This document shows positions 9,495-62,094 of a stretch of DNA of 64,000 nucleotides, piece by piece. A model generated the notes under the pieces. That model had not been told where the DNA came from. It ran no database searches and saw only the letters and a list, made by a program, of their open reading frames with translations. The DNA is from an uncultured bacterium (GTDB taxonomy: Bacteria > Patescibacteriota > Patescibacteriia > CAIQCM01). Position 1 is the stretch's first letter. Every line of letters begins with the position of its first letter. The position numbers and the translations under genes are program-made. The DNA is taken from NCBI GenBank assembly GCA_963708045.1, contig OY970181.1, forward strand, positions 195,740 through 259,739, read 5' to 3'.

Positions 9495-9555
9495 TAAAGT
9501 GGCATTACGCTTCCATGGCATGGAAGAGGTTCGGGTTCGATTCCCGATGGGTCCA
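9485..9555 (+). tRNA. tRNA-Ala(GGC)
   Basis: Hand-folded cloverleaf. Acceptor gggccca/tgggtcc with a G3:U70 pair and A73. D-stem gtaa/ttac. Anticodon stem cttcc/ggaag with loop atGGCat. T-arm tcggg-ttcgatt-cccga. No encoded CCA. Confidence 0.7.
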
Positions 9556-15742: not shown

Positions 15743-16740
15743 TAATAAAGAAGGATGGAGAAATCAACCAAATTTATTTTCCCGTCGGCGTTTAGGTCGT
15801 AATTAATCGGAAAAGTTTTCTTTTTAAAGAAAGCGATCAGAATGGAAACGTCCTGCAAATTTACTTTGCCATCGCAATTAAAATCGCCTTTAAGCGAACA
15901 GCTTTTCACGGGCGCAGGCGCCGCCTTGGTTATTGAATCGCTTAGGGTTGAGGTGGCGCTTGCGCCCAAAAAGCTAGCCGTCGCTTCAATACTAAAAACG
16001 CCTTCGGCAAACCCGGCCGTGTCAAAAACCGTTTGCCACGCTCCGTCTATTCCCGGAACAACGACGTGAAGAATCGATCTGCCCGAACTCGGCGGCTTTA
16101 AAACGACCGAGAGGATTGAACCGGGCATGGCGCTACCGGTCACAATAATTTTGTCGCCGACCGTAACTACTACCGGCGTAGAAGAAATTGACGGCGAAAA
16201 TAAAATACCAGAAACTACGGCCGACGCTGAAAGATTTTTATCGCGAATAACCGATACCGTTCGGCCGTTTGTGTCAGTTGATAAAATTGTTGCCGTATAC
16301 GCTCCGTCACGGCTAACTGAAATCGCAAAGCTTCCGGATGAGTTGGCATACGACGAGCCAACGAGAACGTTATCAATATATATTTGCACAAGTGCCTTGG
16401 GCGAGGTTAGGCCGGAAAAAACCACCGATGGAAAATAAATACTACCGCCGCCACTACCACTCGTTCCCCCGCTCGGCACTGGCGTATTTGATAAGAGCGT
16501 CGCCGCAAAACCGTCGCTTGCGCGAAAATTTGTAGACGAGGCGGTGCCCGAAACCGCTGAGCCAAGCACGCCACCGACTTGAAAATTCGCCGATGATGAA
16601 GAAATACCGCCGTCGTTTAAACTGTCCGAGACCACACTATAGTTTGACGACGACATCGCGGCAAACGATAAGTTTGGAAATATAAATACGCCAAAAACAA
16701 TAACGACAATAATTTTATAGCAAAACTTGTTTCGGAACAT
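15730..16740 (-). CDS. dockerin-domain secreted protein
   Basis: The C-terminus GDFNCDGKVNLQDVSILIAFF...DLNADGKINLVDFSILLYYW holds two canonical Ca-binding dockerin repeats. N-terminal signal peptide. Ser/Gly/Thr-rich beta-rich body. Confidence 0.65.
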   Translation of the reverse strand: MFRNKFCYKIIVVIVFGVFIFPNLSFAAMSSSNYSVVSDSLNDGGISSSSANFQVGGVLGSAVSGTASSTNFRASDGFAATLLSNTPVPSGGTSGSGGGSIYFPSVVFSGLTSPKALVQIYIDNVLVGSSYANSSGSFAISVSRDGAYTATILSTDTNGRTVSVIRDKNLSASAVVSGILFSPSISSTPVVVTVGDKIIVTGSAMPGSILSVVLKPPSSGRSILHVVVPGIDGAWQTVFDTAGFAEGVFSIEATASFLGASATSTLSDSITKAAPAPVKSCSLKGDFNCDGKVNLQDVSILIAFFKKKTFPINYDLNADGKINLVDFSILLYYWKK

Positions 16741-25700: not shown

Positions 25701-26664
25701 TCGGCGTTAAATTTATCGCTCCCGCGCCAGTCGCATTAAAATTTCCGTTTGCCAAATTAAATAAAATCGCATCTCCCCCACTCGTATTAATTGTTTGGCC
25801 ATTATTATAAACCGATTGCAGGGTTGAAGTACCGCCAGTTGTGTCACAGTCAGCCCACGAACCATTTACAAAACAACGAAATTTATTTGTTAGCGTATTG
25901 TAATATGTCTGACCATTAACACCCGACGGATCAGCGACAGCCGAGCCCAAAATTAAACCGCCGCCGATTGTCGTGAGCATTCCCGCGCTACCCAAATTTA
26001 CATTTTGCGTTAGCGTTAAATTTCCCGAGGCGTCGGTAACCGGCACAAACGCCGAGGCGCCGCCGACAGCCGACGTGCCAAATGAATTTAATTTCAAACT
26101 ATTTAACGATTGATATACCGCCGACATCCGCGTGCGCGGTGTCATTTCGGCATCGGTATTAATTTTTAAACCCAAGTAACGACTGTCGTCGGAAAATATC
26201 GCGTCTGGCAAATTATTTTGTCCGCCCGAAGTTGAGTCGCCTAAAAGTACAGAAAATAATCCATTAGTAACACCGACCGATACCGTCCCAAGCAACCCGC
26301 AATCAGTCGTATTTGCGTTTGCATCAGTATCAGCCGCTGACCAAACACAGGTGCCGCCCGAAGCAGAATCGTAAATAGCGATCTGCATATTGTAAGTTCC
26401 ATTTGCAACATTGCTTCCAGCTGTATCAGTCAACCGTCCTTGGTAATTTAAAAGTCTAACAACACCACTTGCACCAAAGGCCGGCTTAGCAATTCCAAAA
26501 AATAGTGAAGAAAAAATTAAAAACGACAAAACAAAACCAGACCAAGCCGCGCGGCGCGCACTTGGCAAAAAATGTTTCAATGTATTTTTAAAATTCATTG
26601 AATTTGTCTGTTTTTTTATAAACAACAGAACAAATAATTTCTCTGGTCGGTTTATAACAACCAA
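16795..26664 (-). CDS. giant secreted/surface repeat protein (3289 aa)
   Basis: Single uninterrupted ORF. N-terminal signal/TM. Very Gly/Thr/Ser/Ala/Asn-rich with many internal repeats (recurrent ...DPSGVNGAMYYN...KFRCY.NG.W.DCDT.GGT... modules). Globular C-terminal domain followed by a Pro/Thr/Glu-rich tail. Confidence 0.8.
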   Translation of the reverse strand: MVVINRPEKLFVLLFIKKQTNSMNFKNTLKHFLPSARRAAWSGFVLSFLIFSSLFFGIAKPAFGASGVVRLLNYQGRLTDTAGSNVANGTYNMQIAIYDSASGGTCVWSAADTDANANTTDCGLLGTVSVGVTNGLFSVLLGDSTSGGQNNLPDAIFSDDSRYLGLKINTDAEMTPRTRMSAVYQSLNSLKLNSFGTSAVGGASAFVPVTDASGNLTLTQNVNLGSAGMLTTIGGGLILGSAVADPSGVNGQTYYNTLTNKFRCFVNGSWADCDTTGGTSTLQSVYNNGQTINTSGGDAILFNLANGNFNATGAGAINLTPTSASQFTSSGALTLTAGAASVWSTSAGALTLDSATTLNLGTLNAMAITLGKTGITTTVQSDLTTAATLTANGGIVFSSGNILGASPLVFDGATANANKTTFAITDPTSSRTITFKNESGTVAYLSDLSTAGVPTADETQFTVTGFSTQTAPLVRFETFGGADLISFSGTGSVSVAPGQSYTGTGAVNLSSGTGALTITGAGASTWSTTAGNLTLQAGSGIISLGTTTNLNATGALEIASGGANDLSLTAGSGFLHLGAGTNTIINTDLGTNLVLDAEGDIKIADADTLILGSQATDPTGVNGAMYYDTATDKFRCFAGGGWMDCITGGTVTGIGSAGQVAFWNGTNSQTGDSGLFWDNTTKHLGIGTNTTTAPLSVSVNDTANNTYTDVGAFVHSTTGAAANGIGNGLVFLAENSVGTPSLSGRITSILTDVTSGAQDSAFTFQTRTAGGPLTERLRIDDQGFLIPGASDNGQDIGSAVNRWRTGYFGTSVVIGSATYAGSSVTSTGSFTVNATGGLSLASSSGTVSLGAGSNSLSNTDVGTDLIIGSQRNVKIADSSLVVMSSKAADPASPPATNGAMYYNTATNQMRCYLNGVWGGCAVGAFISASGVTRLTTISDQVGIGTASPVADTKLQIVSDDATANDISNVVTIDHTTSGTAAAGIGLGINFRSENDAGSITNVGHINALLTNAASGAEASAISFETRTGGGAATERLRITAAGLLPALTSNAEDIGATGNVWRTAYLGTSAIVNANTTLADGSLATATGNLVFQPAGSGTTANIQIGSGAGSVTPDLLVVDLKSNAGDPTGSVGAMYYNVNLNKFRCYENISWKDCDTSGATTLQSAYDNGSSITTSSSTPILFTLTSGDFNATGTGAVNLTPTAASQFTSAGALTFTAGAASTWGTTSGDLSLDSGSGILKLAAGTNTISNTNATTDIILKATANTKIDDSNLLVLGSQLADPSGVDGAIYYSSATNKFRCYLNGSWSDCDTTGGTVNLQTAYNNGNAIITGSSTPILFTLTSGDFNATGTGAVNLTPTAASQFTSAGALTFTAGAASTWGTSAGNLSLQAAGTGVTADVQIGAGGSTTPDLLVVDLKSNAGDPAGGANGAMYYNSIAAKFRCYEGGGWKDCDTTGGTTTLQTAYNAGASVTTSSSTPILFTLTSGDFNATGTGAVNLTPTAASQFTSAGALTFTAGATSTWSTSAGALTLTSASAATWGTLAGNLSFIAAGSGTGNIQIGTGAPSATPDLLVMDAKSTSGDPSGVNGAMYYNSADDKFRCYKAGVWQDCLGTWTEVGLINQMKNFADQLQIGATAPPAGTKADISLDDAVNNNSSTVLVLDHTTTAVAGNGIGSNLLFRNENDAGALADSGGISAVLTNTANGTEDSMLGFFTRVGGGVLTEQLRITEVGTLQPGTTDNALDVGASGNRWRTGYFGTSLVTGATTLSGSSLASTGALAVSSGGGAALSLSSSSGTLTFAAGTNTITNSDATTDLNLSATRNIKIANSSLLIFSNKASDPATPPSTNGATYYNTVTKTFRCYIDNAWIDCAGGASVSGTGTSGQVSFWNGSNTQTGDNEFYWDNASKQLSLGTSTPHTGTKLYVEQEDAINNDISDVLVLEHATSGTPAAGLGVGMLLRAQNNIGTEVPAARLSGILTNVTPGAETGAIRFETLNVGSPVERARIDNLGNLTFAQTTTISSGSTGTLTLKTLNQTAGSTNSAAVSLVTGNAGGATSNSGNVTIDAGTATGTAGTVNVGTTNASAISISRSGITTTINGALTASQLLTGSLGLNVTGAAVNLNSSSNFNTNINNGTSTGTVTIGSGAAGAIGVVSGAAITVTAGVASTWSTSAGNLTLQAGSGTVSLGTSTILTAAGSMNITSAGAATWQSSSGALTLTSAAAATWGTSAGNLSLQVAGAGQTANVQIGSGAGVTTPDLLVTDIKSSAGDPTGSVGAMYYNANANKFRCFENIAWKDCDTAGATTLQEAYDNGATITTSGANIAYTLTSGNFNATGAGAVNLTPTSASQFTSGGALTLTAGAASTWSTSSGALTLTAGAASTWSTLVGALTVDSASALNLGTSGATSVSLGKTGITTTNNGALTVTQTLTANGNITLSSGNVTGASPLSFDGATADAVKTIFAITDPTVTSKTITFPNATITVNAAADISGTTLASGVVTSSLTTVGILTSGSIASGFGTIATANTISTSNNISTTGSGTITSAGLLTGNLGLTVSGAAVSLNDNSNFNTSINAGTSTGTVIIGNSSLASIGFTSGTGAQTFTSSNATGVTTASSFVFNDTSLTSGTLLRLNSTSTSGKIVDINFTNTTGTIMNGAYGAATNQGAGALIGLAFDMNANLTAPSAGQNITGFDLKLPTASTTSNATIYNGYNLTTAGAITNGTAGSFLWHGVNVTLPGITQSAGGAVTASGVMVNTGTITTNGTANGVEIAAAGIGAGSLNGLGISNITGGAGTETAINIGAGWDQGLTIGVTPSATTGRTIDVAGNWGGNSLNNVHLTTANDTVTVSTKALVYFLSLCNVTTTCSTGNGTQGAAPTTTFNITGLPNTDGTFAFIETQVQRIGVGGGANENATIIVQVNGTQVSTVTAGAANTNSVVIIENYTIVRANGAWRVVGTPGTADSADLAEWIPYSGDEPVAGELVSLDTNNPVTVVRSSGTDNKKLIGVVSTLPHTTLGKDDGHSVRLALAGRVPVKVSDENGAIGAGDYLTLSSVPGVAMKATSPGFVIGQVLSSANGDDASEAIMLIKNTYYPGDEPALSLVMGRLIDSKDLPNGITSFALDIQAETPHDPIAALIDRINAGAKIAADFVAARVTAIRGYFDETHQRKLCVGDAKTGNETCITKDQLDQLLNSQQNVNAPSAPPAPVPVVNEPVTNTPTPPVEPVTTTPSTEEPVVNEPATDPDTINEPAAESAPPTDEPMPEPTVSEPSAEISPAPQAEPTPTETIPVSQE

Positions 26665-39416: not shown

Positions 39417-40064
39417 GTGGGAATTAAATATAGTATCAACGAGACGTTTTTTACCAAATGGTCATCTAATATGGCTTATGTCTTGGGTTTCTTTTGTGCC
39501 GACGGCACAATGATTGATGACAAGATAAGCCGTGGCAAATACGTTCGTTTTATTAATACAGATAAAAATATTCTGATAAAAATTAAGGAGGCACTTAACT
39601 CCGAGCACAACATATATACAACCAAGGCTACAGCAAACCGTAAGGCTAAATACGTATTGAGTATTGGAAACAAAACTATTTATTCAAGTCTGATAGTTCT
39701 TGATTTAACGCCAAATAAATCATTGGACATTGCACCGCCGTCGGTTCCCAAACAATATATCAACGATTTTGTTCGTGGATACTGCGATGGCGATGGTTGT
39801 ATATATATTGAGAAACAGAGCAATACACTTAGGCTGATATTTACTTCTGGAAGCTCAGGTTTTCTTGTCGGTCTTGCGAAAATGATTACATTAATGAGCG
39901 GTGTTAGTATTAAAAATATATTAAACAGCCACCGAAGCTACCAATTGCGATACACACAAAACGACGCCATTACTATACTTCGTAGTATTTACAAAAATAC
40001 AAAATCTGGTCTATACTTGGAACGGAAAAGAAAAATATTCCAAAAATTTATTAAAAACAGATAA
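39417..40064 (+). CDS. double-motif LAGLIDADG homing endonuclease
   Basis: Two motifs, LGFFCADGT and RGYCDGDGC, about 100 aa apart. 215 aa. Ends 4 nt before tRNA-Cys. Confidence 0.7.
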   Translation: MGIKYSINETFFTKWSSNMAYVLGFFCADGTMIDDKISRGKYVRFINTDKNILIKIKEALNSEHNIYTTKATANRKAKYVLSIGNKTIYSSLIVLDLTPNKSLDIAPPSVPKQYINDFVRGYCDGDGCIYIEKQSNTLRLIFTSGSSGFLVGLAKMITLMSGVSIKNILNSHRSYQLRYTQNDAITILRSIYKNTKSGLYLERKRKIFQKFIKNR

Positions 40065-40068
40065 TTTC

Positions 40069-40142
40069 GGCCGCGTGGTGGAGTGGTTACACAAGGGTCT
40101 GCAAAACCCTGTACATCGGTTCAATTCCGATCGCGGCCTCCA
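40069..40142 (+). tRNA. tRNA-Cys(GCA)
   Basis: Acceptor ggccgcg/cgcggcc. U73 discriminator (a Cys identity element). Encoded CCA. Anticodon stem agggt/accct with loop ctGCAaa. T-arm atcgg-ttcaatt-ccgat. Short D-stem. Confidence 0.65.
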
Positions 40143-43426: not shown

Positions 43427-43561
43427 CCAAATAACACCTTACACCAAACACCCAGCCCTCGTGCCGGGTGTTTTGCTTTATAAATTAGAAATTTAAAGAG
43501 GCCCGATTCCGCGTGCGGATTCAGACCTCTTCGTGTGCTTGAAAAAACTGTCAGGCTGTTT

Positions 43562-44371
43562 TTAGCTTACGCAAGACAAAGCTTCCAAAAGCGCCCCCCT
43601 TCGTCCCAAATCGTCAACCTTCCTAACCGATGAACCAAAGCTTTCCAAATCCTCCGAATTATGAGTCGCGGAATATACTTCCAAATAGATTAGCGCGGCC
43701 TCTTCGGCGCCAATCCCAGCCGCATGGGCGGTCTGTTTCGCGACAAACAAATCAAGCTCTTCGTGCTTTTCGCCAAAAATAGCAAGGTAGGCGCGTGCGC
43801 GAGCAAAGTGCTTTTTATGAATCCCTGGACATTTTTCCAGTCCATCGGCCATCCCGCGAACAATTGACCACGCGGGTGGGTCGTCCTGGAGCTTGGCAAC
43901 AGACAAGCCCGTCTGAAACTGCACCAGCGGCGAACCAAAGTCGACTGTGTTCAATATAGCCCACACCCTCCCCCATTGCTTAGTTTTGGCTAGATTTAGG
44001 ACAAAACCAGAGAAAATGCACGCACGCGTGAGCGAAAAATTGATTGTGCGAATGAGTGGAATAGCAAGATCTTTGTCGGAATATCCGTCCGGCAAAGACG
44101 TCTCGCAGACAACTTCTTCCAACACCCCAAGAAGACGTTTATGATGACGAACTGCCAAAAAAAGATGGCCCTTTTCTATCTCCACCATTCCTCTTCGCCA
44201 AGCCATGGCGTCACAATTACGACTATCCGCTTCATCGACTCGGACGATTGCCAAAAGAGCTTCTGCCCCTTCGGCTTCATCTTCTTGCATTGGAATGTTG
44301 TTGTAAAAACTTGCTACACTTATATCTAGAAGACTCTGCCAGGAACCTCTGATTTCTTTCAATGTACGCAT
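43562..44371 (-). CDS. hypothetical protein (GC-rich orphan)
   Basis: 269-aa ORF with no family recognised. Abuts IS copy 1. Confidence 0.4.
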   Translation of the reverse strand: MRTLKEIRGSWQSLLDISVASFYNNIPMQEDEAEGAEALLAIVRVDEADSRNCDAMAWRRGMVEIEKGHLFLAVRHHKRLLGVLEEVVCETSLPDGYSDKDLAIPLIRTINFSLTRACIFSGFVLNLAKTKQWGRVWAILNTVDFGSPLVQFQTGLSVAKLQDDPPAWSIVRGMADGLEKCPGIHKKHFARARAYLAIFGEKHEELDLFVAKQTAHAAGIGAEEAALIYLEVYSATHNSEDLESFGSSVRKVDDLGRRGALLEALSCVS

Positions 44372-44438
44372 CGGTCGCCTCCCTTGTTCTTCGTTTCCTC
44401 TAAAGCTAATTGCGTCTTATCTAAATTACGATAAAAAG

Positions 44439-45317
44439 TCAACTATTTGTACTAGACGGGTACATCGGTAACAAGTGCTCGTGCTTGTAGATGAAATTGA
44501 TCGGTGACATATACCCCAGGGTTTGGTGCGGCCGACGGAAGTTGTATTCGATCAGCCACTCAGTGAGCCGTCGGTTGAATTCGGCGCAGTCGTCGGTCAT
44601 GTTCCCGAGCTGAACAAACTCCTCTTGTAGGGTTCGGTTGAACCGTTCGTTCGTCGCGTTGTCCTTGGGTGTTTTGATCCGCGAATGATATTGGGGAATA
44701 TTTAGAGCAAGACACGCGTCAGCAAACCGTCCCTTGAACTCGCTGCCGTTGTCATGCCCAACGTTCTCTATCTTCCCATCAACGAGATGATGGAGGCGAT
44801 AAAGAAAATCGCGAGAATTTGATGAACTCTTTGACGTATACATCCGGGCAAAAGCTAGTTTAGAGTGTTTGTCGATGGCGGTGAAGATGAAACGCTTCTT
44901 GCTTTTCCAATAAATAACGACGGTATCGAGGCAGAGTAGAAACCCCGATCGTTTCTTGGTCTTGAGGTCGGTGATCTTCTTGCGTTTAACACTATTCTTT
45001 CGTTTTTTGTTGATCCTGGCTTGTTTTATTGGGTGGTAATAGAGACGGTACTTCTCAATAGTCTTCTGCACCTTCCACTCAGAAATGATCTCGTGATATT
45101 CTGTGTTATAGAGAGTGGCGATCTTCGCTTTTCCATAGCGGATATGCGTCCTCTTCAACGAAATGATTCGTTCAGCTTGGAGCGGGGTAATGGCCCGCTC
45201 TTTGCGTTTCTTGGGGGTACGATCAAGTTCTTCAAGGGTGCGGAGGTTGGCATCGTTAAAGCGTTTCTTCCATTTCCAAAAGGTCTTGGGGGCGATGCCA
45301 AAATGACGAGCCGTCAA
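44439..45317 (-). CDS. DDE (rve-family) transposase
   Basis: HTH FGIAPKTFWKWKKRF. DDE region DTV...HDNGSEF...NERFNRTL. 292 aa. The stop codon lies in the flank outside the IS end. Confidence 0.8.
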   Translation of the reverse strand: MTARHFGIAPKTFWKWKKRFNDANLRTLEELDRTPKKRKERAITPLQAERIISLKRTHIRYGKAKIATLYNTEYHEIISEWKVQKTIEKYRLYYHPIKQARINKKRKNSVKRKKITDLKTKKRSGFLLCLDTVVIYWKSKKRFIFTAIDKHSKLAFARMYTSKSSSNSRDFLYRLHHLVDGKIENVGHDNGSEFKGRFADACLALNIPQYHSRIKTPKDNATNERFNRTLQEEFVQLGNMTDDCAEFNRRLTEWLIEYNFRRPHQTLGYMSPINFIYKHEHLLPMYPSSTNS

Positions 45318-45577
45318 AAGAGCGTTGCCGCCGTGCTCCTCGTGCCAAAGGAACCAATCTAGTCAACGTCTAGCGGGAACGGAGATGCCGATCAGGTCGG
45401 CGACGGCGCGAAGGCGCGCCCGACGCGATTTAGTTAAAACGATACCGGGTTTGAAATACCCGCCGGTGTGGAACCAACGAAGCGTATGATTGCTCATAGA
45501 AAGATGAGTTAGATGGGTAACAGTCTCATTTTAACCCCATTCGAGGAGTGTTACCGATGTATCTCATCTTCTCCACT
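44448..45577 (-). mobile_element. insertion sequence copy 1 (~1.13 kb, rve/DDE transposase, IS481/IS3-like), 3-bp TSD ATT
   Basis: Near-identical to 51001-52131. Flanked by att|IS|att. Target ...gtcaact|att. Subterminal inverted repeats around tacatcggtaaca. Confidence 0.8.
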
Positions 45578-45637
45578 ATTTACCTTCCCCCAAGTGTGGG
45601 GGAAGGTGCCCGAAGGGCGGATGAGGGCTGTGAAATG

Positions 45638-45666
45638 TTGACAGAATTCAGCCAAAATGGTAGTAT
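45638..45666 (+). promoter_or_regulatory. sigma70-like promoter for rpsO (TTGACA-17-TAGTAT)
   Basis: ttgacagaattcagccaaaatggtagtat. It lies just past the IS end, preceded by the hairpin ccttcccccaagtgtgggggaagg. Confidence 0.5.
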
Positions 45667-45744
45667 TGTTTAATAATTATTTAATTAGTAGGACACTTGG
45701 TTAAACCGCCGGCGGCGATTTTACTCGGTTTCCCACACGAAAAT

Positions 45745-46014
45745 ATGTTAGACAAAAACGCCAAAGAGAAAATTATTGAAAAATTTAAGACGCACGCGAC
45801 CGACACCGGCTCGCCGAACGTCCAGGTCGCCATCCTTTCGGCTGAAATCGGCGACCTTACCAAACACCTTCAATCGCACAAAAAGGATTTTTCTTCGCGT
45901 CGCGGACTTCTTAAAAAAGTTTCCGAGCGCCGCCGTTTGCTTAAATATATGTCGCACGAAGACCCGAGCGGATACAAAAAGCTCGTGGAAGCGCTTGAAA
46001 AAACCAAATTTTAA
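45745..46014 (+). CDS. rpsO: 30S ribosomal protein S15
   Basis: ...TGSPNVQVAILSAEIGDLTKHLQSHKKDFSSRRGLLKKVSERRRLLKYM... is an S15 match. Confidence 0.85.
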   Translation: MLDKNAKEKIIEKFKTHATDTGSPNVQVAILSAEIGDLTKHLQSHKKDFSSRRGLLKKVSERRRLLKYMSHEDPSGYKKLVEALEKTKF

Positions 46015-46133
46015 TTTTTTATTTTTTAATTTAATTGGAGACAGAGAGATTAGAGATTAGAGATTTGAATGAAGAAGTCGGACGACGTTCTTCTAAAATC
46101 TAATCTCCAATCTCTAATCTCAATAATAAAACA

Positions 46134-46775
46134 ATGGCCGTCATCAAACACCCGGAGCAAAGAGTCGGAATTTTTATTGATACACAAAATATGTATCACT
46201 CGGCGCGCGATCTTTATAACGCGCGCGTTAATTTTGGCAAGTTGGTTGAAGAAGCAGTCGGCGATCGTCGCCTTGTCCGCGCTATTGCCTACGTCATCAG
46301 CACGACCGGCGGCGAAGAAAAACCGTTTTTTGAAGCGCTTAAGCATGCCGGCATTGAAACGCGCGAAAAAGATTTGCAAATTTTTTACGGCGGCGGCAAA
46401 AAAGCCGACTGGGACGTTGGTCTCGCGATTGACGCAATCCGCATCGCGCCGCTTTTGGACGTTGTCATTATCGTTTCGGGCGACGGCGACTTTTGCCCGC
46501 TCGTTGAATACTTGCGCAACCACGGACTTCAAGTTGAAGTCGCCGGCTTCCGCAAAACTACGGCTACCAAACTCGCTGAGGCGGCCGACGCCTTTACCGA
46601 TCTTTCCGAAGTCGCCGAAAATATTCTTATTCAATCAAATTCAAAACCGCAGGTTGAATTTTCCCGCCCCAAAACTGATTTCCCGAAAAAAGAATATCTC
46701 GCGCCGACCAGAGACAATCGTCCGCCTAGAAAAACCAATGTCCGTACCGAACGCAAACCAATTACTGATTTTTAA
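46134..46775 (+). CDS. NYN-domain (LabA-like) putative RNase
   Basis: IFIDTQNMY...ADWDVGLAIDA...VSGDGDF is the NYN/LabA acidic-residue pattern. Lies between rpsO and pnp. Confidence 0.65.
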   Translation: MAVIKHPEQRVGIFIDTQNMYHSARDLYNARVNFGKLVEEAVGDRRLVRAIAYVISTTGGEEKPFFEALKHAGIETREKDLQIFYGGGKKADWDVGLAIDAIRIAPLLDVVIIVSGDGDFCPLVEYLRNHGLQVEVAGFRKTTATKLAEAADAFTDLSEVAENILIQSNSKPQVEFSRPKTDFPKKEYLAPTRDNRPPRKTNVRTERKPITDF

Positions 46776-46928
46776 AAATAATTAAGAGATAAGATTTAGG
46801 AATTAAGAAAACGGTTATACGTTTCTTAATTCCTAATTCATAAATCTTAAATCTAATTAACGTGGCCCCCAAACAATATGATCTCTCGCAAGATGCGGGA
46901 AGTCAGCTGTTTGCGGGTCAAAAAATAT

Positions 46929-49172
46929 ATGACCCAGAAAGAATTTTCTATAGAGTGGGGCGGCCGAACGCTCACACTCTCTACCGGCTTACTCGCCAAA
47001 CAAGCGACCGCTTCGGTTGAAGCGCGCTATGGCGACACCGTTGTTCTCGCGACCGTCGTTCTCGGCGGCATTCGCGACGGCATTGATTATTTTCCGCTAA
47101 TGGTTGATTTTGAAGAGCGTCTTTACGCCGCCGGCAAAATCAAATCTTCCCGCTTTATTAAGCGCGAAGGCAAACCAAGCGACGAAGCGGTTTTAACCGG
47201 TCGTCTGATTGACCGTTCCATTCGTCCGCTTTTCCCGTGGGAATTAAAAAACGAAGTACAAGTAACGGTTACTTGTTTGTGCTATGACGAAGAAAACGAT
47301 CCCGCCACCTTGGGACTTATTGCCGCTTCGGCCGCGCTTCATATTTCGCGCATCCCGTGGATGGGACCGATCGGCGCTTCACGCATTAGCCGCGCCGAAG
47401 GCAAACTTATTTTAAACGCCTCGCTTATTAACCGCGACGCGGGTGATCTGGACATCGTTGTTGCTGGCACCAAAGACAAACTCATCATGGCCGAAGCGGG
47501 CGCCAAAGAAGTTTCCGAAGACGACGCCGTCGCTTCGGTTCGTTTTGGTTTAGAAGCCAACGCCGCGGTGGTTGAACTGATAGAAAAAATGCGCAAAGAA
47601 ATTGGCGTGCCTAAAGTTGACGTCAACGAATTAAATAACGAAACCGACGAAATTGTTGCCGCTAAAAAGCAAGCCTACGAAACGACGCGCGCTTTCTTAA
47701 TGCCAAAAATTGAAGAGCTTTTCTTTAACGCGCCCAAAGCCGACAAGGTTGAACGCGCCACGGCTAAAAAGAAGTTGCACGAACTTTTGGAAGCCGAACT
47801 TGAAACAAAAACTGCTGACGACGATGCGCGCAAACTCGCGCACTCGCAAGTTGAAGAAGTTATTGAAGAAGCGGTGACGACGGCGATTTTGGAAAAAAAC
47901 CGCCGCGTTGACGGACGAAAAATTGACGAGGTGCGCACGCTTGCGTCCAAAGTTGGTTTGCTTCCGCGCACGCACGGTTCGGGACTTTTTGAGCGCGGCG
48001 ACACGCAAGTTTTGTCGGTCGTTACTTTGGGCGGTCCGGGCGACGCGCAAATTTTGGACGGAATGGAACAGGCCGATCTTAAAAAGCGTTACATGCACCA
48101 CTACAACTTCCCTGGCTATTCGGTCGGCGAAGCTAAACCCAACCGCGGCCCGGGTCGCCGCGAAGTCGGCCATGGCGCTTTGGCTGAACGCGCGCTAGAG
48201 CCAGTTCTTCCGACCGTTGATAAATTTCCTTACGTCATCCGCGTTGTTTCCGAAGTCCTTGGCTCAAACGGTTCGTCCTCAATGGCCTCGGCTTGCGGTT
48301 CAACCCTCGCGCTTATGGATGCGGGCGTGCCGATTACAGCGCCGGTTGCCGGCGTCGCGATGGGCATTGCGACCCGCCACGGTTCCGATGAATACAAAAT
48401 CATTACCGACCTTCAGGATTTGGAAGACGGCATCGGCGGAATGGACTTTAAAATCTGCGGCACCAAAAAAGGCATTACCGCGATTCAAATGGACACCAAA
48501 ACGCTCGGCCTTTCAATGAAAATCGTTGAAGAAACTTTTGCCAAAGCCAAGGATGGCCGAATGAAAATTTTGGAAGTAATGGAAAAATGTTTGGCCGCGC
48601 CGCGCGCCGAACTTTCGGCTTGGGCGCCGCGCATTGAAACGATTATGATCAATCCGGAAAAAATCCGCGACGTGATCGGACCCGGCGGCAAGATGATTAA
48701 TAAAATTATTGCCGAAACCGGCGCGACAATTGACGTTGAAGATGATGGCCGCGTCACCGTTACCTGCGCCAAGCCAGAAGGAATGAAGAAGGCTGTTGAG
48801 TGGATCAAGATGCTAACGAAAGAAGTCGTGGTCGGCGAAATTTATCGCGGCAAAGTTGTCCGCACAATGGACTTTGGCGCGTTTGTGGAACTCACACCAA
48901 ACCAAGACGGCATGGTGCACATTTCCCAACTCGCCCCATGGCGCGTTAACCGCATTGAAGACGTCGTCCACATTGGCGACGAAGTGCCAGTTAAAGTAAT
49001 TGAAATTGATGAAATGGGTCGCGTTAACTTGTCGGTAAAAGCCGCGCGCGAGGAATTAAAAGAAGCACAATTCGTAATGCCGGAAGGCTACGAGTCGGCG
49101 CCGCAGGCGCCACGCAGCCCGCGCCCAAGTTTTGGCGGCGGCTCTCGCGGCGGCCACGGCGGACGAAGATAA
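46929..49172 (+). CDS. pnp: polynucleotide phosphorylase
   Basis: Two RNase PH domains, then KH (GPGGKMINKIIAETG) and S1 (GKVVRTMDFGAFVEL) domains. The start is trimmed to MTQKEF. Confidence 0.9.
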   Translation: MTQKEFSIEWGGRTLTLSTGLLAKQATASVEARYGDTVVLATVVLGGIRDGIDYFPLMVDFEERLYAAGKIKSSRFIKREGKPSDEAVLTGRLIDRSIRPLFPWELKNEVQVTVTCLCYDEENDPATLGLIAASAALHISRIPWMGPIGASRISRAEGKLILNASLINRDAGDLDIVVAGTKDKLIMAEAGAKEVSEDDAVASVRFGLEANAAVVELIEKMRKEIGVPKVDVNELNNETDEIVAAKKQAYETTRAFLMPKIEELFFNAPKADKVERATAKKKLHELLEAELETKTADDDARKLAHSQVEEVIEEAVTTAILEKNRRVDGRKIDEVRTLASKVGLLPRTHGSGLFERGDTQVLSVVTLGGPGDAQILDGMEQADLKKRYMHHYNFPGYSVGEAKPNRGPGRREVGHGALAERALEPVLPTVDKFPYVIRVVSEVLGSNGSSSMASACGSTLALMDAGVPITAPVAGVAMGIATRHGSDEYKIITDLQDLEDGIGGMDFKICGTKKGITAIQMDTKTLGLSMKIVEETFAKAKDGRMKILEVMEKCLAAPRAELSAWAPRIETIMINPEKIRDVIGPGGKMINKIIAETGATIDVEDDGRVTVTCAKPEGMKKAVEWIKMLTKEVVVGEIYRGKVVRTMDFGAFVELTPNQDGMVHISQLAPWRVNRIEDVVHIGDEVPVKVIEIDEMGRVNLSVKAAREELKEAQFVMPEGYESAPQAPRSPRPSFGGGSRGGHGGRR

Positions 49173-49221
49173 ATAATAAAATAAAAACTCGTTCTGAAAA
49201 ATCAGAGCGAGTTTTTGTTAT

Positions 49222-49346
49222 GGCGTCATCCCGAAGAGCCGAAGCGATGAGGGAACTCAAAGTCTTTAGCAAGTTTCGTGATTCCTCGCCGAGCTGAGCT
49301 CGGCCGAGCCCTAGACAAAACGTCCTTACGGGCTCGGAATGACGCC
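49222..49346. repeat. MITE-like palindromic element, copy D (long form)
   Basis: ggcgtcatcccgaagagccgaagcgatgagggaactcaaagtctttagc...ccgagctgagctcggccgagccctag...ctcggaatgacgcc. Confidence 0.7.
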
Positions 49347-49436
49347 ATAAAAATTATTATTACGCACTTTATCATAAAAAAACGACGCAGCCTGGGAATT
49401 CCAGACTGCGCGTGGTGGGCGAGATGTACGGCGGGG

Positions 49437-49940
49437 TCAGCGACTAGCGCTAGCGTATAAACGGTTATGGTGTCCAACCCATGCGCGAGCTTGTTCTTCA
49501 TCTTCGCTCGCAAAGACCCGCATCGTGTTGTTGGCGTAGCGGCCATTGTTTTGCTTCTGGCCAAACGGAAAGGCAATTCCTGGCACAAGCGCGATATAGA
49601 AGAGCGACGTGAATACAAGCGCGAAGGTGGGATCGGTCTTGCCTTCGTCTTCGGTCGGATTTTGACAAATACAAACAGGATGACCGACCAAAAAAACCTG
49701 AGTATCAACCTCCGACGAGACGCCGTAGAGTACAGCCGTTTGGCCGTCGTCAAAAGCGACAAACAGTTGCGCTGTGAGATAGGCCAAACGGTTTTGAACC
49801 AGAATAGCCTCACGCCGTAGGGTTATTGCCCAGTCCTCGTTTGATTTTCCTGCCGCCTCGCGCAAAACCCTGATCCTCGTGCGTGCCGCTTCTGGCGTAA
49901 CAATTGTTGCTGTATCAACCTTAGGAATTCCTGTCTGCAT
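49437..49940 (-). CDS. hypothetical protein (GC-rich orphan)
   Basis: 167-aa ORF. Followed (3') by the hairpin cgcagcctgggaattccagactgcg. Confidence 0.4.
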   Translation of the reverse strand: MQTGIPKVDTATIVTPEAARTRIRVLREAAGKSNEDWAITLRREAILVQNRLAYLTAQLFVAFDDGQTAVLYGVSSEVDTQVFLVGHPVCICQNPTEDEGKTDPTFALVFTSLFYIALVPGIAFPFGQKQNNGRYANNTMRVFASEDEEQARAWVGHHNRLYASASR

Positions 49941-50103
49941 CGCTGTTTCTCCTTACGTAATGAACAACGGTTTCCCGACCGTCAGGGTGAATTTTGGGGA
50001 AAAAATATTATCCTTTTAAATCCATTTTTTGTCAAACCCGCTTAAAACAGAGACACGCAGCCCGGACGAACCAGACTGCGTGTGAATACGAACGGTTGAG
50101 TGA

Positions 50104-50922
50104 TTAAATGTCCCCTTGTCTCCACCGCTGTCGTTGCGCCTCGGCCTCGGCGGCACGAAGTGCGGCTTTCTCTTTTTCTTTCTCTATTCCGCGCAAGTTA
50201 CTTCTTACCTCTTCAAACAAACGCAGAAGCAGTTCAACTCTTGGCGCGTAGTATGCTCTGGCGTCCGTTTGATCAATCGGCATTTTTTCAAGCAGCCCTA
50301 CCACCTCGCGCCTGATTGGCTGAGTTAATTCTTTGCCAAATTCCCACGGTATTTTTCTTCTGCAGCCGTGCAGGTAAACCAAAGCAATGACGAGCAGTTT
50401 TTCAACTCCAATGCGGTCGTTAAAAACACCAAGACAATCATTAGCCGCCCGCAGGTAAGCATTCAGGAAGCCAATTTGTTGAGCAAACGAAATGTCAAAA
50501 AGTCGTCGCGCAAGCTGAGCCCTTTCGCTGGTTTGATATATAGACGTTAGTTCGCCAGGAGTTCTAAAAACGAAAAACCCGGAGATGACCACGTCCATCG
50601 CAAACAGATTCGTCGCAATCTGTGTTCCACGGTTATCGGAAATCGTTTGAAAAACCTTGGGCAGAACCGGAGTGTTAACTGTCCAGGGCGGCGTTGGACG
50701 CTTCACAAGTTTTTGACGCAGTAAATTCAAACCACTTTGCGCAAAAACAATTGCACGTGTTTGAATTTTTGTGACTGGTCGCAAACCACCCAACCATTCT
50801 TTCAAGTCTGCGGCAACGTTGTCTGCAAGACCACCTTCGTCGCGCCAAACCTTTAGGATTTCCGTGATTTGAAAGGTTGTCAAAGCCAAACGGGCTCGTG
50901 AGCTTATGAATTTTCGTCTCAT
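50104..50922 (-). CDS. hypothetical protein (GC-rich orphan, Arg/Glu-rich C-terminal coiled coil)
   Basis: 272-aa ORF. Followed (3') by the hairpin cgcagcccggacgaaccagactgcg, related to the one after 49437. Confidence 0.4.
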   Translation of the reverse strand: MRRKFISSRARLALTTFQITEILKVWRDEGGLADNVAADLKEWLGGLRPVTKIQTRAIVFAQSGLNLLRQKLVKRPTPPWTVNTPVLPKVFQTISDNRGTQIATNLFAMDVVISGFFVFRTPGELTSIYQTSERAQLARRLFDISFAQQIGFLNAYLRAANDCLGVFNDRIGVEKLLVIALVYLHGCRRKIPWEFGKELTQPIRREVVGLLEKMPIDQTDARAYYAPRVELLLRLFEEVRSNLRGIEKEKEKAALRAAEAEAQRQRWRQGDI

Positions 50923-50991
50923 TTGTTCACCTCGCGTTTTCGTAAAAAGAGCTATAACCTGCTAACTGTTTAATTGTTTTCCGCACTTATG

Positions 50992-51870
50992 TCAACTCTG
51001 TGTACTAGACGGGTACATCGGTAACAAGTGCTCGTGCTTGTAGATGAAATTGATCGGTGACATATACCCCAGGGTTTGGTGCGGCCGACGGAAGTTGTAT
51101 TCGATCAGCCACTCAGTGAGCCGTCGGTTGAATTCGGCGCAGTCGTCGGTCATGTTCCCGAGCTGAACAAACTCCTCTTGTAGGGTTCGGTTGAACCGTT
51201 CGTTCGTCGCGTTGTCCTTGGGTGTTTTGATCCGCGAATGATATTGGGGAATATTTAGAGCAAGACACGCGTCAGCAAACCGTCCCTTGAACTCGCTGCC
51301 GTTGTCATGCCCAACGTTCTCTATCTTCCCATCAACGAGATGATGGAGGCGATAAAGAAAATCGCGAGAATTTGATGAACTCTTTGACGTATACATCCGG
51401 GCAAAAGCTAGTTTAGAGTGTTTGTCGATGGCGGTGAAGATGAAACGCTTCTTGCTTTTCCAATAAATAACGACGGTATCGAGGCAGAGTAGAAACCCCG
51501 ATCGTTTCTTGGTCTTGAGGTCGGTGATCTTCTTGCGTTTAACACTATTCTTTCGTTTTTTGTTGATCCTGGCTTGTTTTATTGGGTGGTAATAGAGACG
51601 GTACTTCTCAATAGTCTTCTGCACCTTCCACTCAGAAATGATCTCGTGATATTCTGTGTTATAGAGAGTGGCGATCTTCGCTTTTCCATAGCGGATATGC
51701 GTCCTCTTCAACGAAATGATTCGTTCAGCTTGGAGCGGGGTAATGGCCCGCTCTTTGCGTTTCTTGGGGGTACGATCAAGTTCTTCAAGGGTGCGGAGGT
51801 TGGCATCGTTAAAGCGTTTCTTCCATTTCCAAAAGGTCTTGGGGGCGATGCCAAAATGACGAGCCGTCAA
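50992..51870 (-). CDS. DDE (rve-family) transposase
   Basis: Identical to the copy-1 protein except the last residues (TQS vs TNS), which are flank-encoded. An upstream overlapping 80-aa HTH-like ORF (51809-52051) is intact only in this copy. Confidence 0.8.
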   Translation of the reverse strand: MTARHFGIAPKTFWKWKKRFNDANLRTLEELDRTPKKRKERAITPLQAERIISLKRTHIRYGKAKIATLYNTEYHEIISEWKVQKTIEKYRLYYHPIKQARINKKRKNSVKRKKITDLKTKKRSGFLLCLDTVVIYWKSKKRFIFTAIDKHSKLAFARMYTSKSSSNSRDFLYRLHHLVDGKIENVGHDNGSEFKGRFADACLALNIPQYHSRIKTPKDNATNERFNRTLQEEFVQLGNMTDDCAEFNRRLTEWLIEYNFRRPHQTLGYMSPINFIYKHEHLLPMYPSSTQS

Positions 51871-52131
51871 AAGAGCGTTGCCGCCGTGCTCCTCGTGCCA
51901 AAGGAACCAATCTAGTCGAACGTCTAGCGGGAACGGAGATGCCGATCAGGTCGGCGACGGCGCGAAGGCGCGCCCGACGCGATTTAGTTAAAACGATACC
52001 GGGTTTGAAATACCCGCCGGTGTGGAACCAACGAAGCGTATGATTGCTCATAGAAAGATGAGTTAGATGGGTAACAGTCTCATTTTAACCCCATTCGAGG
52101 AGTGTTACCGATGTATCTCATCTTCTCCACT
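51001..52131 (-). mobile_element. insertion sequence copy 2, 3-bp TSD CTG
   Basis: Flanked by ctg|IS|ctg. Target ...gtcaact|ctg. 1-nt indel relative to copy 1 in the region upstream of the transposase start. Confidence 0.8.
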
Positions 52132-52372
52132 CTGGCACACCCCTCCCATCTTGGCGCGGCCGCGCCAAGATGGGAGGGCAAAAAAATAATCAATTACTAA
52201 TTTAATATTAACGATCCAAAATCGGTCTATAGATTTAAAACACAGCATCACATTAAATCGCGATCGCGAATTAATGTGATGCGTGAAAAAATATTACAAA
52301 ATATAAATCAACATAGAAAATAGGGAAGCGACTGTTGGCCACTTCCCTATCATGCGCGATTGTCATTCGGAT

Positions 52373-53146
52373 CTATGGAGTCTTCGCCGATTCAGCAAGT
52401 GGTAGTTTACCAACGACGTCGCTCACGACAGTGCTAAGCACTTTCGCACCAACGCGTTGTACAATCGTGGCTAGTTCGCCAGTGACCCTTTCAAGCTCAG
52501 CACCCATGAGAGACGTGTGCGCTCTTAGTGCTATAGCAACTTGGTCGCGACATTCTTGCATTGTACCGAACGCGTGCGCCCGTTGAACGACAGCGCCTGG
52601 CCGCCAATCGGTCGGAACAACCATTCCGGCGCGTAGTCTTGGAAACAACTTGCGTCCGTAGTCCACCTGAAACCACATCCAATCGGTCGGCCGCAATTTC
52701 GCAAAACCCATAATAAGCTCTCCGACCGAACTCGTACTGATTACTCCGTACAATTTTTTTCCGGTTTGAGTAAGTTGCACTACGTTAAAAAGCGGCGTGT
52801 CAAGAAACACCCGCCATTCCGCGTCTTTCCAATACGGCGGTTGCCAACCAAGGGCAATCGGGTCGTTGCCAAAAGAAAGACCAAGCTGATTAAGTAGTCC
52901 ACCAAGCTCTTCACGATCTTCGGATATATCACGTGCGGATGCAAAGTTTAACCGACATGCTTCCCCAAGATACAGAACGCCGTACCGACGGCAGTAGTTA
53001 GCTAGCGTCGGAGTACAATTTAAACAATCAATCATTGTGGAGAGCGCCGCAAGCGCCTCTTTTTCAAGAGCGGCGGGGTTCAAACCATCATTATAAAGTG
53101 CGCGTTGTATGCTTACCATTTTTCTCCTCGTGTTTCGTGTTTCCAA
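52373..53146 (-). CDS. hypothetical protein (GC-rich orphan)
   Basis: 257-aa ORF. Followed by paired palindromes (atcacattaa...ttaatgtgat, then ccctcccatct...agatgggaggg). Confidence 0.4.
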   Translation of the reverse strand: METRNTRRKMVSIQRALYNDGLNPAALEKEALAALSTMIDCLNCTPTLANYCRRYGVLYLGEACRLNFASARDISEDREELGGLLNQLGLSFGNDPIALGWQPPYWKDAEWRVFLDTPLFNVVQLTQTGKKLYGVISTSSVGELIMGFAKLRPTDWMWFQVDYGRKLFPRLRAGMVVPTDWRPGAVVQRAHAFGTMQECRDQVAIALRAHTSLMGAELERVTGELATIVQRVGAKVLSTVVSDVVGKLPLAESAKTP

Positions 53147-53366
53147 AATGAAACTAGAACCTGTTTAAGGTTTAGTCGTTAACTGTGTCCTTGTCAACTT
53201 ACCCCACCCTCCCATCTTTCCACGATCGTGGAAAGATGGGAGGGTAAGAGATAACACCGCATCACATTTAACCGCGATCGCGAATTAATGTGATGCGAAA
53301 AAAATTTTAAAAAAACAGCCCGCCCCGATGACCATCGGAGCGGGCTTGTGACGACATTCGGATCGT

Positions 53367-54233
53367 CTAAGTGTTTGGATCGGCTTTGCACGGTGGAAAA
53401 TATTCATCAAGCAAACGTGCAAGCAAGAGCATCGCGTCGCCAAGACGAAACCATCGGAGCTGTGGCTTCCAAAATAAAAAATGACAAAGCACTGAAGGAG
53501 CAAGCAAGTCTTCCGAAAAAAGCCACTTCGCCGCCGCGCTAATCGCACGATCTTTTTCCATCCGCATTTTCAATTCGTATGCTTCACTGTCAAGGATCGC
53601 AATAAACATCCCCATTACACTGCTTTCTGCCGAGGCCAGTCTTGCTACCACCCCAGCCAAAGCAACAACAACATGGTCTGGTTCGTGGTTGCCGATGCCA
53701 TTATTCATAAGCGCGAATAGATAATCCTCAAGCAGACAGATCTCGGCGGAGTGACGATGAACCGATCGACGGCACGCGTACGAAGAAATTAGCCAATTCA
53801 TTCTGTTCACAAGAAGTTTTTTTGCGCGTTCCGCGGCGTCAATTTCGTCAGGGTGTCTAATTCCAGCCTCGACAAACTCTTGACGCCATTTTATTGTTCC
53901 GGCGCGCACTTCTTCCACAATCGGATAAAACGCCGGTTCTAATCCTGTGTTATAGCAAAGCAGTATTGAGTTAACGATTTTCTCGGGGACAGGCAAAGAC
54001 ATAATCTCACGATACGCTTTGTGGCCAACCTCGCGAACAACCGGATTTGCGGGCAACCGCCAAGCACTTATCTTCTGACCACGGAAACCCGCCAAATATG
54101 CATTGTCAAGGGTAGTCTTCTGAATGACCGAGAGTCGTCGCAAAAATTCCGTCGCTCGCCAAGAAGCGACAAAGTTTCGCTCGTTGGTCCGACCGAGGAT
54201 GGCAACGTTTTCTCTACCGTCTCTGTATGACAT
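53367..54233 (-). CDS. hypothetical protein (GC-rich orphan)
   Basis: 288-aa ORF. The same paired palindrome module follows at 53205-53300. Confidence 0.4.
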   Translation of the reverse strand: MSYRDGRENVAILGRTNERNFVASWRATEFLRRLSVIQKTTLDNAYLAGFRGQKISAWRLPANPVVREVGHKAYREIMSLPVPEKIVNSILLCYNTGLEPAFYPIVEEVRAGTIKWRQEFVEAGIRHPDEIDAAERAKKLLVNRMNWLISSYACRRSVHRHSAEICLLEDYLFALMNNGIGNHEPDHVVVALAGVVARLASAESSVMGMFIAILDSEAYELKMRMEKDRAISAAAKWLFSEDLLAPSVLCHFLFWKPQLRWFRLGDAMLLLARLLDEYFPPCKADPNT

Positions 54234-54510
54234 GCCAACCCCACAACCAAAAGCATTCTCAAAGACAAACGGCGTACACTTTATTGGCGTTTCGTCTCTA
54301 CCCGAACCCGTGCCATAAACGGTTCGTTCTTAAAATGAATTATGATTGGCTCAAACATTAGACAACCTCCTTGTTTTCAATTGTAATGTCCGTTAAAGCT
54401 CACCAAAATCCGTCGCTTTAATATCGTCTTGTATCATTAAAATATCTTCGCGTCAATAATCTTCACTGCGAACTGACTATTGAAAAACGGGGGAATGTGG
54501 TAATAATTAC

Positions 54511-61984: not shown

Positions 61985-62030
61985 ATATTTGATATTTAAA
62001 AAGACTCCGCGCGGAGTCTTTTTAAATATC
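61985..62030 (+). terminator. rho-independent terminator
   Basis: aaaaagactccgcgcggagtcttttt. Confidence 0.7.
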
Positions 62031-62094
62031 AAAAAAACGGCCAGGCGAACCCAACCGTTTTATTGTGACAGTATTTGCCACTAGAGAAATCTAA

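Follow-up and report, generated by a model that had tools for sequence, protein, structure and literature searches.

Orphan genes around rpsO-pnp in a Patescibacteria chromosome: probable syntenic single-gene units with intrinsic terminators and REP-like promoter-side palindromes

Introduction

Five co-oriented genes without recognised relatives, set among conspicuous palindromes, raise the question of whether they form a mobile cassette array, a single accessory system or a row of independent genes with their own signals. Such genes, here lettered A to E, are found in a stretch of 64,000 nucleotides (hereafter the window) from an uncultured bacterium of the Patescibacteriota (assembly GCA_963708045.1, contig OY970181.1, positions 195,740 to 259,739). 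They are interleaved with two copies of an insertion sequence (IS) and with the rpsO-NYN-pnp block, and two families of palindromes, P1 and P2, lie in the spacers between C, D and E. An original prediction, made from the letters of the window, had described them as an array of genes each with a private palindrome, resembling gene cassettes, and as a candidate for one uncharacterised accessory system, such as defence or toxin-immunity.

All five minus-strand open reading frames (ORFs) are present as described, and the modular layout stands in the sense that each gene is a separate unit of promoter, gene and terminator. The reading that we prefer, with a probability of roughly 55%, is that A, the rpsO-NYN-pnp block and then B, C, D and E are vertically inherited, syntenic units, the five orphans each a single gene, and that the palindromes are in part intrinsic terminators and in part promoter-side hairpin elements akin to repetitive extragenic palindromic (REP) sequences. 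The components are of known kinds: lineage-specific hypothetical genes, intrinsic terminators, extragenic palindromes and an IS481-like element. A false lead is thereby removed from the annotation, the region being neither a cassette array nor a genomic island nor a defence operon.

Each gene is a separate transcription unit

A to E each have their own TTGAC(A/T) -35-like box, GGAGG ribosome-binding site and terminator-like hairpin consisting of a stem and a U-tract. When the minus strand was scanned for terminators, the best four matches fell directly 3′ of E, D, C and B, a GC-rich stem being followed by a T-run in each case. For comparison we used two contigs of one JGI metagenome that are syntenic with the window, L004 (26,960 bp) and L005 (10,996 bp). 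Terminators homologous to that of C follow its orthologues in L004 (11727-11758) and L005. The hairpin after A did not pass the consensus terminator scan; the same AAGAGGC..GCCTCTT stem and TAAATTT tail follow both A paralogues of a more distant relative, L131. In that contig (2-1941) the A family is duplicated in tandem, each copy with its own TTGACT box and with the AAGAGGC...GCCTCTT terminator at its end, and a 40-bp palindrome stands after the second copy (2026-2065).

Promoters of the orthologues in L004, L005 and L128, a contig from the European Nucleotide Archive (ENA; record k141_149381), keep the TTGACA/TTGACT box. The promoter of B (50035-50007) agrees with the consensus at 11 of 12 positions; the -35 boxes of A, C and D were identified by eye, not by consensus scan. 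The A promoter, which is interrupted by an IS copy in the window, is uninterrupted in L004 and reads TTGACT-N18-TAAGAA.

The two related hairpins previously noticed behind B and C (49385-49414 and 50055-50084) are real and 77% identical. They carry T-runs and score as terminators, and are therefore generic intrinsic terminators of B and C, not private palindromes. Terminators of this generic kind were part of what the original prediction had named as its refutation. The finding cannot be extended to P1 and P2, which have no T-run and are not terminators.

P1 and P2 lie upstream of the C and D promoters

The two-part palindromes are located where they had been placed, and they occur far beyond chance. 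CCCTCCCATCT has four copies in the window against 0.38 expected, a count reached in none of 100 shuffles. Likewise, almost loop-less palindromes with arms of at least 14 bp were absent from 20 shuffles of the window. The outer arms of P1b match those of P1a; the inner 7 nt differ and yet stay paired.

These modules had been thought to follow D and E. A closer inspection revealed that the gene's own terminator comes first and that P2, then P1, lie beyond it. On the minus strand, the terminator of E is succeeded by P2b, a 13-nt spacer, P1b, an 8-nt spacer and the TTGACA of D. The terminator of D is succeeded by P2a, a 66-nt spacer, P1a, a 6-nt spacer and the second IS copy. When this IS and one target duplication were removed in silico, P1a came to lie 11 nt upstream of the TTGACA of C, and the upstream regions of D and of the IS-less C align in the order P2, P1, -35 box. 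Therefore, P2 and P1 together are a promoter-upstream element of D and C rather than a 3′ appendage of E and D.

A third copy of P1, CCCTCCCATTTTGACGCGA/TCGCGTCAAAATGGGAGG (the slash here and in the palindromes of Table 1 marks the centre), was found in L128, where 8-9 nt part it from the downstream TTGACA of the D orthologue. As it occurs in an independent metagenome contig, an assembly artefact was rejected as the source of the palindromes. Between L128 and L004, P1 is a clean indel of ~46 bp within ~90% identical DNA. Neither P1 nor P2 is present in the E-D and D-C spacers of L004 or in the corresponding spacers of L005 and L130.

The strict P1 pattern was sought in 185,579 species genomes, the source genome not being among them, and gave one match, an unrelated-looking hairpin of a Paceibacterota genome (L006). 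Across the three P1 copies and L006 the outer arm CCCTCCCAT[CT]TT is conserved, and the inner 7 nt differ from copy to copy and always pair. In the alignment, 5 pairs have changed at both partners and none at a single partner, with 94% of cells paired compared with 50-56% in slid controls. No match to the strict pattern was found in IMG/VR; a looser P1 pattern gave 96 viral matches, all ordinary hairpins and none centred on CGATCG. A pattern for P2 proved too loose, the matches listed from metagenomes being essentially chance hairpins, and was set aside. In Rfam no family scored above threshold, the sub-threshold matches being look-alikes among miRNA hairpins only.

P1b and P2a share the centre CGATCG with other palindromes of this lineage. 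Long loop-less palindromes number 11 in 174 kb of candidate phyla radiation (CPR) DNA and none in shuffles; in the lineage of the window, 8 of 10 are centred on CGATCG, their arms being unrelated. The hexamer itself is not over-represented (25 per 64 kb).

Further perfect, loop-less intergenic palindromes of 32-50 bp with unrelated arms were noted in the window (9022-9067 and 61986-62035), and others of the same description lie in L004 (11681-11712 and 11883-11918), in L005 (6456-6489) and at the L131 site given above. CGATCG is the centre of four of these six, and some occur in only one of two close relatives.

Table 1. Coordinates of the genes, transcription signals, palindromes and IS copies, in window order.
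Feature	Position	Strand	Remarks
Terminator-like hairpin after A	43496-43531	-	AAGAGG...CCTCTT then TAAATTT, read by eye
Gene A	43562-44371	-	269 aa; lineage-specific helical protein family
IS copy 1	44442-45580	-	Core 44448-45574; ACTATT duplications 44442-44447 and 45575-45580
C-rich/G-rich hairpin between divergent A and rpsO	45582-45607		ACCTTCCCCCAAGTGTGGGGGAAGGT; pre-IS end 6 nt upstream of A -35
rpsO-NYN-pnp block, conserved	45638-49216	+	88-96% aa identity to L004/L005
rpsO promoter	45638-45666	+	
rpsO	45745-46014	+	
NYN	46134-46775	+	
pnp	46878-49172	+	
Terminator of rpsO-NYN-pnp block	49183-49216	+	
Intrinsic terminator of B	49385-49411	-	Stem GCGCAGTCTGG/CCAGGCTGCGT then T-run; -21.6 kcal/mol, z = -5.3
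Gene B	49437-49940	-	167 aa; in variable slot between C and pnp
Intrinsic terminator of C	50053-50083	-	Hairpin family shared with B terminator
Gene C	50104-50922	-	272 aa; lineage-specific
IS copy 2	50995-52134	-	Core 51001-52128; ACTCTG duplications 50995-51000 and 52129-52134
P1a	52141-52178		38-bp perfect loop-less palindrome CCCTCCCATCTT-GGCGCGG/CCGCGCC-AAGATGGGAGGG; -38.2 kcal/mol
P2a	52245-52283		38-39-bp palindrome, CGATCG centre, GCATCACATTAAATCGCGA/TCGCGAATTAATGTGATGC
Intrinsic terminator of D	52319-52351	-	Orthologous hairpin after D in L004, L005 and L130
Gene D	52373-53119	-	248 aa; lineage-specific
-35-like TTGACA of D	53192-53197	-	8 nt downstream of P1b on minus strand
P1b	53206-53245		40-bp perfect palindrome, CGATCG centre
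P2b	53258-53297		P2 copy; 85% arm complementarity, left arm diverged without compensation
Intrinsic terminator of E	53317-53346	-	-26 kcal/mol
Gene E	53367-54358	-	CPR-wide family, ~312-342 aa; frameshifted; annotated ORF 53367-54233

Promoter-side elements, operators or by-products

We suggest that P1 and P2 behave like REP sequences, as small palindromic elements that form hairpins or cruciforms. They would most likely act on the adjacent promoter, as operator or insulator, because of their constant position just upstream of -35 boxes, and C and D would then have a shared upstream control region. They are probably not recombination sites for gene cassettes.

Several observations weigh against this reading. 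The -10 elements of A, C and D (TAAACC in D) are weak and fail the consensus scan, and P1 could lie inside a 5′ untranslated region. The covariation of P1 is drawn from 3-4 copies only, and arm-to-arm gene conversion within the palindrome would also yield it without selection. P2b has lost pairing in one arm through three uncompensated changes, which speaks against a strict constraint on P2. Most loop-less palindromes of the lineage share the CGATCG centre despite their unrelated arms. Moreover, REP-like status is claimed here without a RAYT transposase and without high copy number, the copy count referring to the 64-kb window and not to the whole genome. Finally, no evidence ties the proteins A to E to any function.

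Of the alternatives, the one that survives best, though we judge it unlikely, is that a dedicated DNA-binding regulator, which could be one of the orphan proteins, recognises P1 and P2 as its dyad-symmetric operators; C and D would then be one regulon and the palindromes would not be mobile. Three promoters, those of C and D in the window and that of D in L128, have P1 ending 8-11 bp upstream of the -35 box, the 12-bp outer arms of P1 are conserved amid diverged intergenic flanks, and a C/G-rich hairpin likewise lies 6 nt upstream of the A promoter. A loose C[AC]TC[AC]CAT motif was seen by eye in the arms of both P1 and P2; it agrees at 6 of 12 positions and is not significant. However, a dimer bound to the outer half-sites needs no perfect inner 14 bp, and yet these are perfect in all three copies. 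A length of 38-40 bp is long for an operator, the D orthologues of L004, L005 and L130 have no P1, and no DNA-binding domain was detected in A to E. The CGATCG centre also recurs in palindromes with unrelated arms, which therefore point to a common generating mechanism and fit poorly with each being a specific operator.

The loop-less palindromes might also be non-functional mutational by-products, tolerated only in intergenic DNA and produced by snap-back or template-switch synthesis at short GC-rich palindromes (e.g. CGATCG) with subsequent arm-to-arm correction. Quasi-palindrome correction in template-switch mutagenesis yields perfect symmetry, so the perfect stems are as expected, and both the 8 of 10 CGATCG centres with unrelated arms and the turnover between close relatives (L004 11681-11712 is absent in L005, the P1 of L128 in L004) agree with this. 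Against it stand the identical 12-bp outer arms of three P1 copies at non-orthologous promoters, in genomes whose D proteins are only ~60% identical, for which independent de novo formation is no explanation. All differences among P1 copies are confined to the inner 7 of 19 arm positions, and CGATCG is not over-represented in the window. We therefore regard a purely mutational origin as somewhat less probable even than the operator explanation.

A bolder extension, which we would call a long shot, is that the CGATCG-centred loop-less palindromes are an undescribed class of structured DNA elements that rewires the expression of fast-evolving single-gene modules in a turnover hotspot. Such elements may insert beside promoters or may be recognised there by the IS together with a host factor. 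Their best example may be P1, with its conserved outer arms, covarying inner stem, gain or loss as a ~46-bp unit and distance of 8-11 bp from the -35 box. Text searches of the literature found no description of a class of CGATCG-centred loop-less palindromes, nor of the promoter-edge position that is common to P1 and the IS. P1 and this class are the only parts of the locus that could lead to something new, and, if the palindromes are functional or mobile, they would offer a rare handle on cis-regulation in organisms beyond present genetic manipulation.

Relation to known families of palindromes and repeats

REP sequences and the bacterial interspersed mosaic elements (BIMEs) built from them are extragenic palindromes of proteobacteria mobilised by RAYT transposases. 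P1 and P2 resemble them in size (35-40 bp) and in lying only in intergenic DNA, directly behind genes, in forming a pair of different palindromes with a variable linker (13 or 66 nt), and in that compensatory changes keep the stem while presence or absence varies between relatives. Unlike REP/BIME sequences, palindromes of the P1/P2 type are perfect, loop-less and mostly CGATCG-centred, P1 and P2 have no 5′ GTAG motif at their feet, and P1 keeps a fixed 8-11 bp from the -35 box. Each family has only two copies in the 64 kb, separated by 1 kb, and no RAYT/Y1_Tnp match was obtained among window ORFs of at least 150 aa, the set that all recombinase and transposase Pfam scans took in.

Correia repeat enclosed elements (CREE) of Neisseria and promoter-proximal miniature inverted-repeat transposable elements (MITEs) offer a second comparison. 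These, too, are small inverted-repeat elements beside promoters and polymorphic as indels, and P1 and P2 would likewise form long hairpins if transcribed. In contrast to CREE, P1 is a single palindrome of only 38-40 bp and not a pair of terminal repeats around a core, and the indel between L128 and L004 has no evident target duplication.

The centre of P2 contains GCGATCGC, the HIP1 sequence, a cyanobacterial 8-mer that is hyper-abundant throughout genes (PMC5861425), and CGATCG recurs at palindrome centres. Unlike HIP1, CGATCG occurs here at ordinary frequency, the unusual feature being the surrounding palindromes of 32-46 bp, and the host is not a cyanobacterium.

Synteny, evolutionary rate and gene turnover

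The window is part of a single contig of 1,188,223 bp, and homologues of its proteins come from metagenome-assembled genomes of Candidatus Moranbacteria, Kaiserbacteria and Paceibacterota. The host is a small-genome bacterium of the Patescibacteria (CPR), and the region is ordinary chromosomal DNA. Core genes border it on both sides: PBP1A on the left and, on the right, DksA/TraR (named from the Pfam match of its L004 orthologue), LspA, a ComM-like Mg-chelatase ATPase, an M23 peptidase, an H+-pyrophosphatase (H+-PPase) and trigger factor.

The order in L004/L005 is H+-PPase, M23, ComM, LspA, DksA, g244, variable genes, E, D, C, pnp, NYN, rpsO, A; that in L128 and L129, another ENA contig, is g247, E, D. 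L005 retains C and D and lacks E and B, whilst L004 lacks B. A suggested check had been whether the island is absent from close relatives. It is not: A, C, D and E are syntenic across L004, L005 and L128 and keep their order around rpsO-NYN-pnp, and they are therefore not an acquired island. Nor do other features of a genomic island appear, as the GC content is typical of the window, relatives in IMG/VR were not found for A to E, and the IS copies are later insertions.

Within this stable order the genes diverge at very different rates. Amino acid identities between the window and L004/L005 are 96% for rpsO, 92% for DksA, 89% for pnp, 88-89% for NYN and 88% for ComM, compared with 71% for g247, 60-63% for D, 51% for E, 46% for A and 31-34% for C, B being unmatched. 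Comparison of L004 with L005 gave dN/dS values of 0.35 (C), 0.22 (D) and, for pnp, 0.04.

At either end of the array lies a slot whose content varies among close relatives, and a small hotspot of gene turnover is thereby documented next to rpsO-pnp in a CPR lineage. Between C and pnp, the slot is occupied by B in the window and by a Cys-rich protein of 144 aa in L005, and is empty in L004. Two CGCAGYCYGG...CCRGRCTGCG terminator hairpins flank the slot gene in the window (49385-50083) and in L005 (6391-7085). The slot beside E holds nothing in the window, genes for an Eco57I-like methylase and a Tsp45I-like nuclease in L004, and DUF3892 with others in L005.

The L004 genes in question lie between g244 and the E orthologue (L004 6655-8640). 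The Eco57I-like methyltransferase scored 25.7 bits against a cut-off of 25.3, and the neighbouring match to a Tsp45I-like restriction enzyme is weak (E = 9e-4, below the cut-off). Judged by these matches, the two resemble a restriction-modification pair of type II, of which the window has no counterpart.

Could a recombinase nevertheless have assembled the array, with P1/P2 or the CGCAGYCYGG hairpins mobilising single genes as in an integron? The genes are all co-oriented single genes parted by palindromes with conserved outer and variable but paired inner parts, D stands between two P2-P1 modules in direct order, and gene content differs between relatives at the array ends: the C-pnp slot holds B or the 144-aa protein, with the same hairpin family around them, or is empty, and a second variable slot lies beside E. 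All of this recalls integron cassettes. Unlike integrons, the window yielded no intI (no Phage_integrase match) and no other tyrosine or serine recombinase among its ORFs of at least 150 aa, the sole transposase being that of the IS. The genes have promoters and terminators of their own and not a common Pc promoter; P1 (with CCCTCCCATCTT arms) and P2 (with GCATCACATT arms) are perfect palindromes with neither the RYYYAAC/GTTRRRY cores nor the extrahelical bases of attC sites; and the CGCAGYCYGG hairpins have U-tracts and score as terminators. Moreover, D keeps its position in relatives without P1 and P2, as do the core genes. The cassette interpretation of the original prediction is thus very unlikely.

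The least probable alternative, that the five genes are one uncharacterised defence or toxin-immunity system, could draw on their fast evolution, on the variable neighbourhood with a restriction-modification pair in the same slot of L004 and on the want of a fitting housekeeping annotation for any of the five, but there are no PADLOC matches, terminators part separate transcription units, the rpsO operon separates A from the rest, and the families are mutually unrelated, E occurs among housekeeping genes without A to D in three other CPR contigs (L001, L002 and L127), L005 lacks E and B and L004 lacks B, so that A to E are not one co-inherited system.

Protein families A to E

The vertically inherited single genes of the preferred reading encode real cytoplasmic proteins under relaxed purifying selection. 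None is a fragment of a housekeeping gene; all five are genuine, uncharacterised genes. That they match no recognised family was borne out by sequence searches of Pfam, PHROGs, PADLOC, NCBIfam and the PDB. Against the PADLOC defence-system profiles, neither A to E nor g247 gave a match at an E-value of 1 or below. Neither BLASTP nor profile-profile comparison found paralogy among the five, hhalign probabilities among the four families (A, C, D and E) being <0.5%. The genes had also been described as GC-richer than core genes, which does not hold: their GC content is 0.476-0.518, that of the window is 0.475 (Mann-Whitney p = 0.10), and pnp (0.525), ComM (0.537) and the H+-PPase (0.522) are richer.

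A has 6 homologues among 1.84 billion representative proteins. Its orthologue in L004 is 46% identical, also adjoins rpsO and gives a dN/dS of 0.21. B is a singleton cluster, with no tblastn match in L004/L005 and none in IMG/VR or the PDB. The orthologues of C in L004/L005 are syntenic and 31-34% identical, and a word-indexed protein search returned no homologues. Only 3 homologues of D were found among 5.8 billion clusters; the orthologues in L004/L005 are syntenic and 60-63% identical, dN/dS is 0.19-0.22, and alignment of the homologues moves the start from 53146 to 53119. The AlphaFold model of D was set aside owing to its pLDDT of 42. A by-eye likeness of the N-terminus of D to the C-terminal domain of the RNA polymerase alpha subunit was also dropped (hhalign probability 0.3%, no Pfam match).

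E belongs to a wider family, with 13 homologues among 5.8 billion clusters. These carry ~40 further N-terminal residues (IxFxNxPFMARVxGxGxxPIxCTP...), which in the window are encoded upstream in another frame. The true start is an ATG at 54358 preceded by a GGAGG ribosome-binding site, and a G-run at ~54301-54304 is short of one base, which leaves the first ~19 codons from 54358 in the other frame. This frame break could be a homopolymer error of long reads, a pseudogene or phase variation. A full-length orthologue of E gave an AlphaFold model with a pLDDT of 84 and a pTM of 0.71, comprising an N-terminal domain of five strands and a helical domain, for which Foldseek found no significant fold match in the PDB or BFVD. 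E is thus a CPR-wide family with a confident predicted structure and no PDB match. A motif in E resembling the HPD of J-domains was rejected, being without Pfam or fold support.

Four protein families under relaxed purifying selection, without a known fold or domain, are thereby documented. As to their role, our best guess, weakly held, is an accessory or conflict-related one, because the array ends are gene-turnover slots and one relative has a restriction-modification pair there. The corrected models cover the frameshift and start of E, the start of D, the boundaries and target duplications of the IS copies, and four terminators.

Insertion sequences at the A and C promoters

The two IS copies are near-identical (repeat spans 44438-45577 and 50991-52131, 99-100% identical), with cores of 1127-1128 bp and perfect target duplications of 6 bp. 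Copy 1 was inserted at the first T of the A -35 box (TTGACT) and copy 2 at the first T of the C -35 box (TTGACA, 50995-50990), where it splits the promoter of C from P1a and P2a. The junction is AGT/TGAC in both cases, the duplication ending in the first T of the hexamer, and both insertions lie 1-6 nt from the foot of a C/G-rich hairpin, namely 45582-45607 at A and P1a at C. That TTGACT belongs to the host is confirmed by L004, in which the A promoter is uninterrupted.

The transposase contains rve, rve_3 and HTH_32 domains and, over residues 46-354, has 90% identity with cluster members of 355 aa. The copies may be called IS481-like from their DDE (rve) transposase, N-terminal helix-turn-helix and 6-bp duplications; the length of ~1.13 kb and the single transposase of ~355 aa are also as in that family. 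Unlike typical IS481 members, both copies sit at the upstream edge of a -35 box beside a hairpin, their terminal inverted repeats are poor over the outermost 12 nt, and they share a frame break near codon 45 relative to cluster members of 353-355 aa.

The segment that holds the hairpin between A and rpsO (45582-45636) is 91% conserved in L004 (15856-15910), in the opposite orientation. In L004 it belongs to an inverted pair (15788-15910).

Other features of the window

The NYN gene is flanked by AT-rich imperfect inverted repeats, one in the rpsO-NYN spacer (46046-46121) and one in the NYN-pnp spacer (46772-46860), whose arms of 32-39 nt are 79-84% complementary.

A tandem array at 9170-10693 repeats a 94-bp unit 12.4 times with 98% identity; the unit is made up of the 3′ part of tRNA-Ala(ggc) (T-arm and acceptor end), a hairpin and a T-run. 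The array stands directly after an intact tRNA-Ala (9484-9556), and a GIY-YIG-like ORF (~9240-9480) lies between a partial tRNA copy and the intact gene. An ORF of 3289 aa without a Pfam match occupies 16795-26664 and adjoins ORFs (15062-16740) with weak matches to cohesin and dockerin/Big_6. Within 39417-40142, a LAGLIDADG_3 ORF ends 5 nt before tRNA-Cys (40069-40142).

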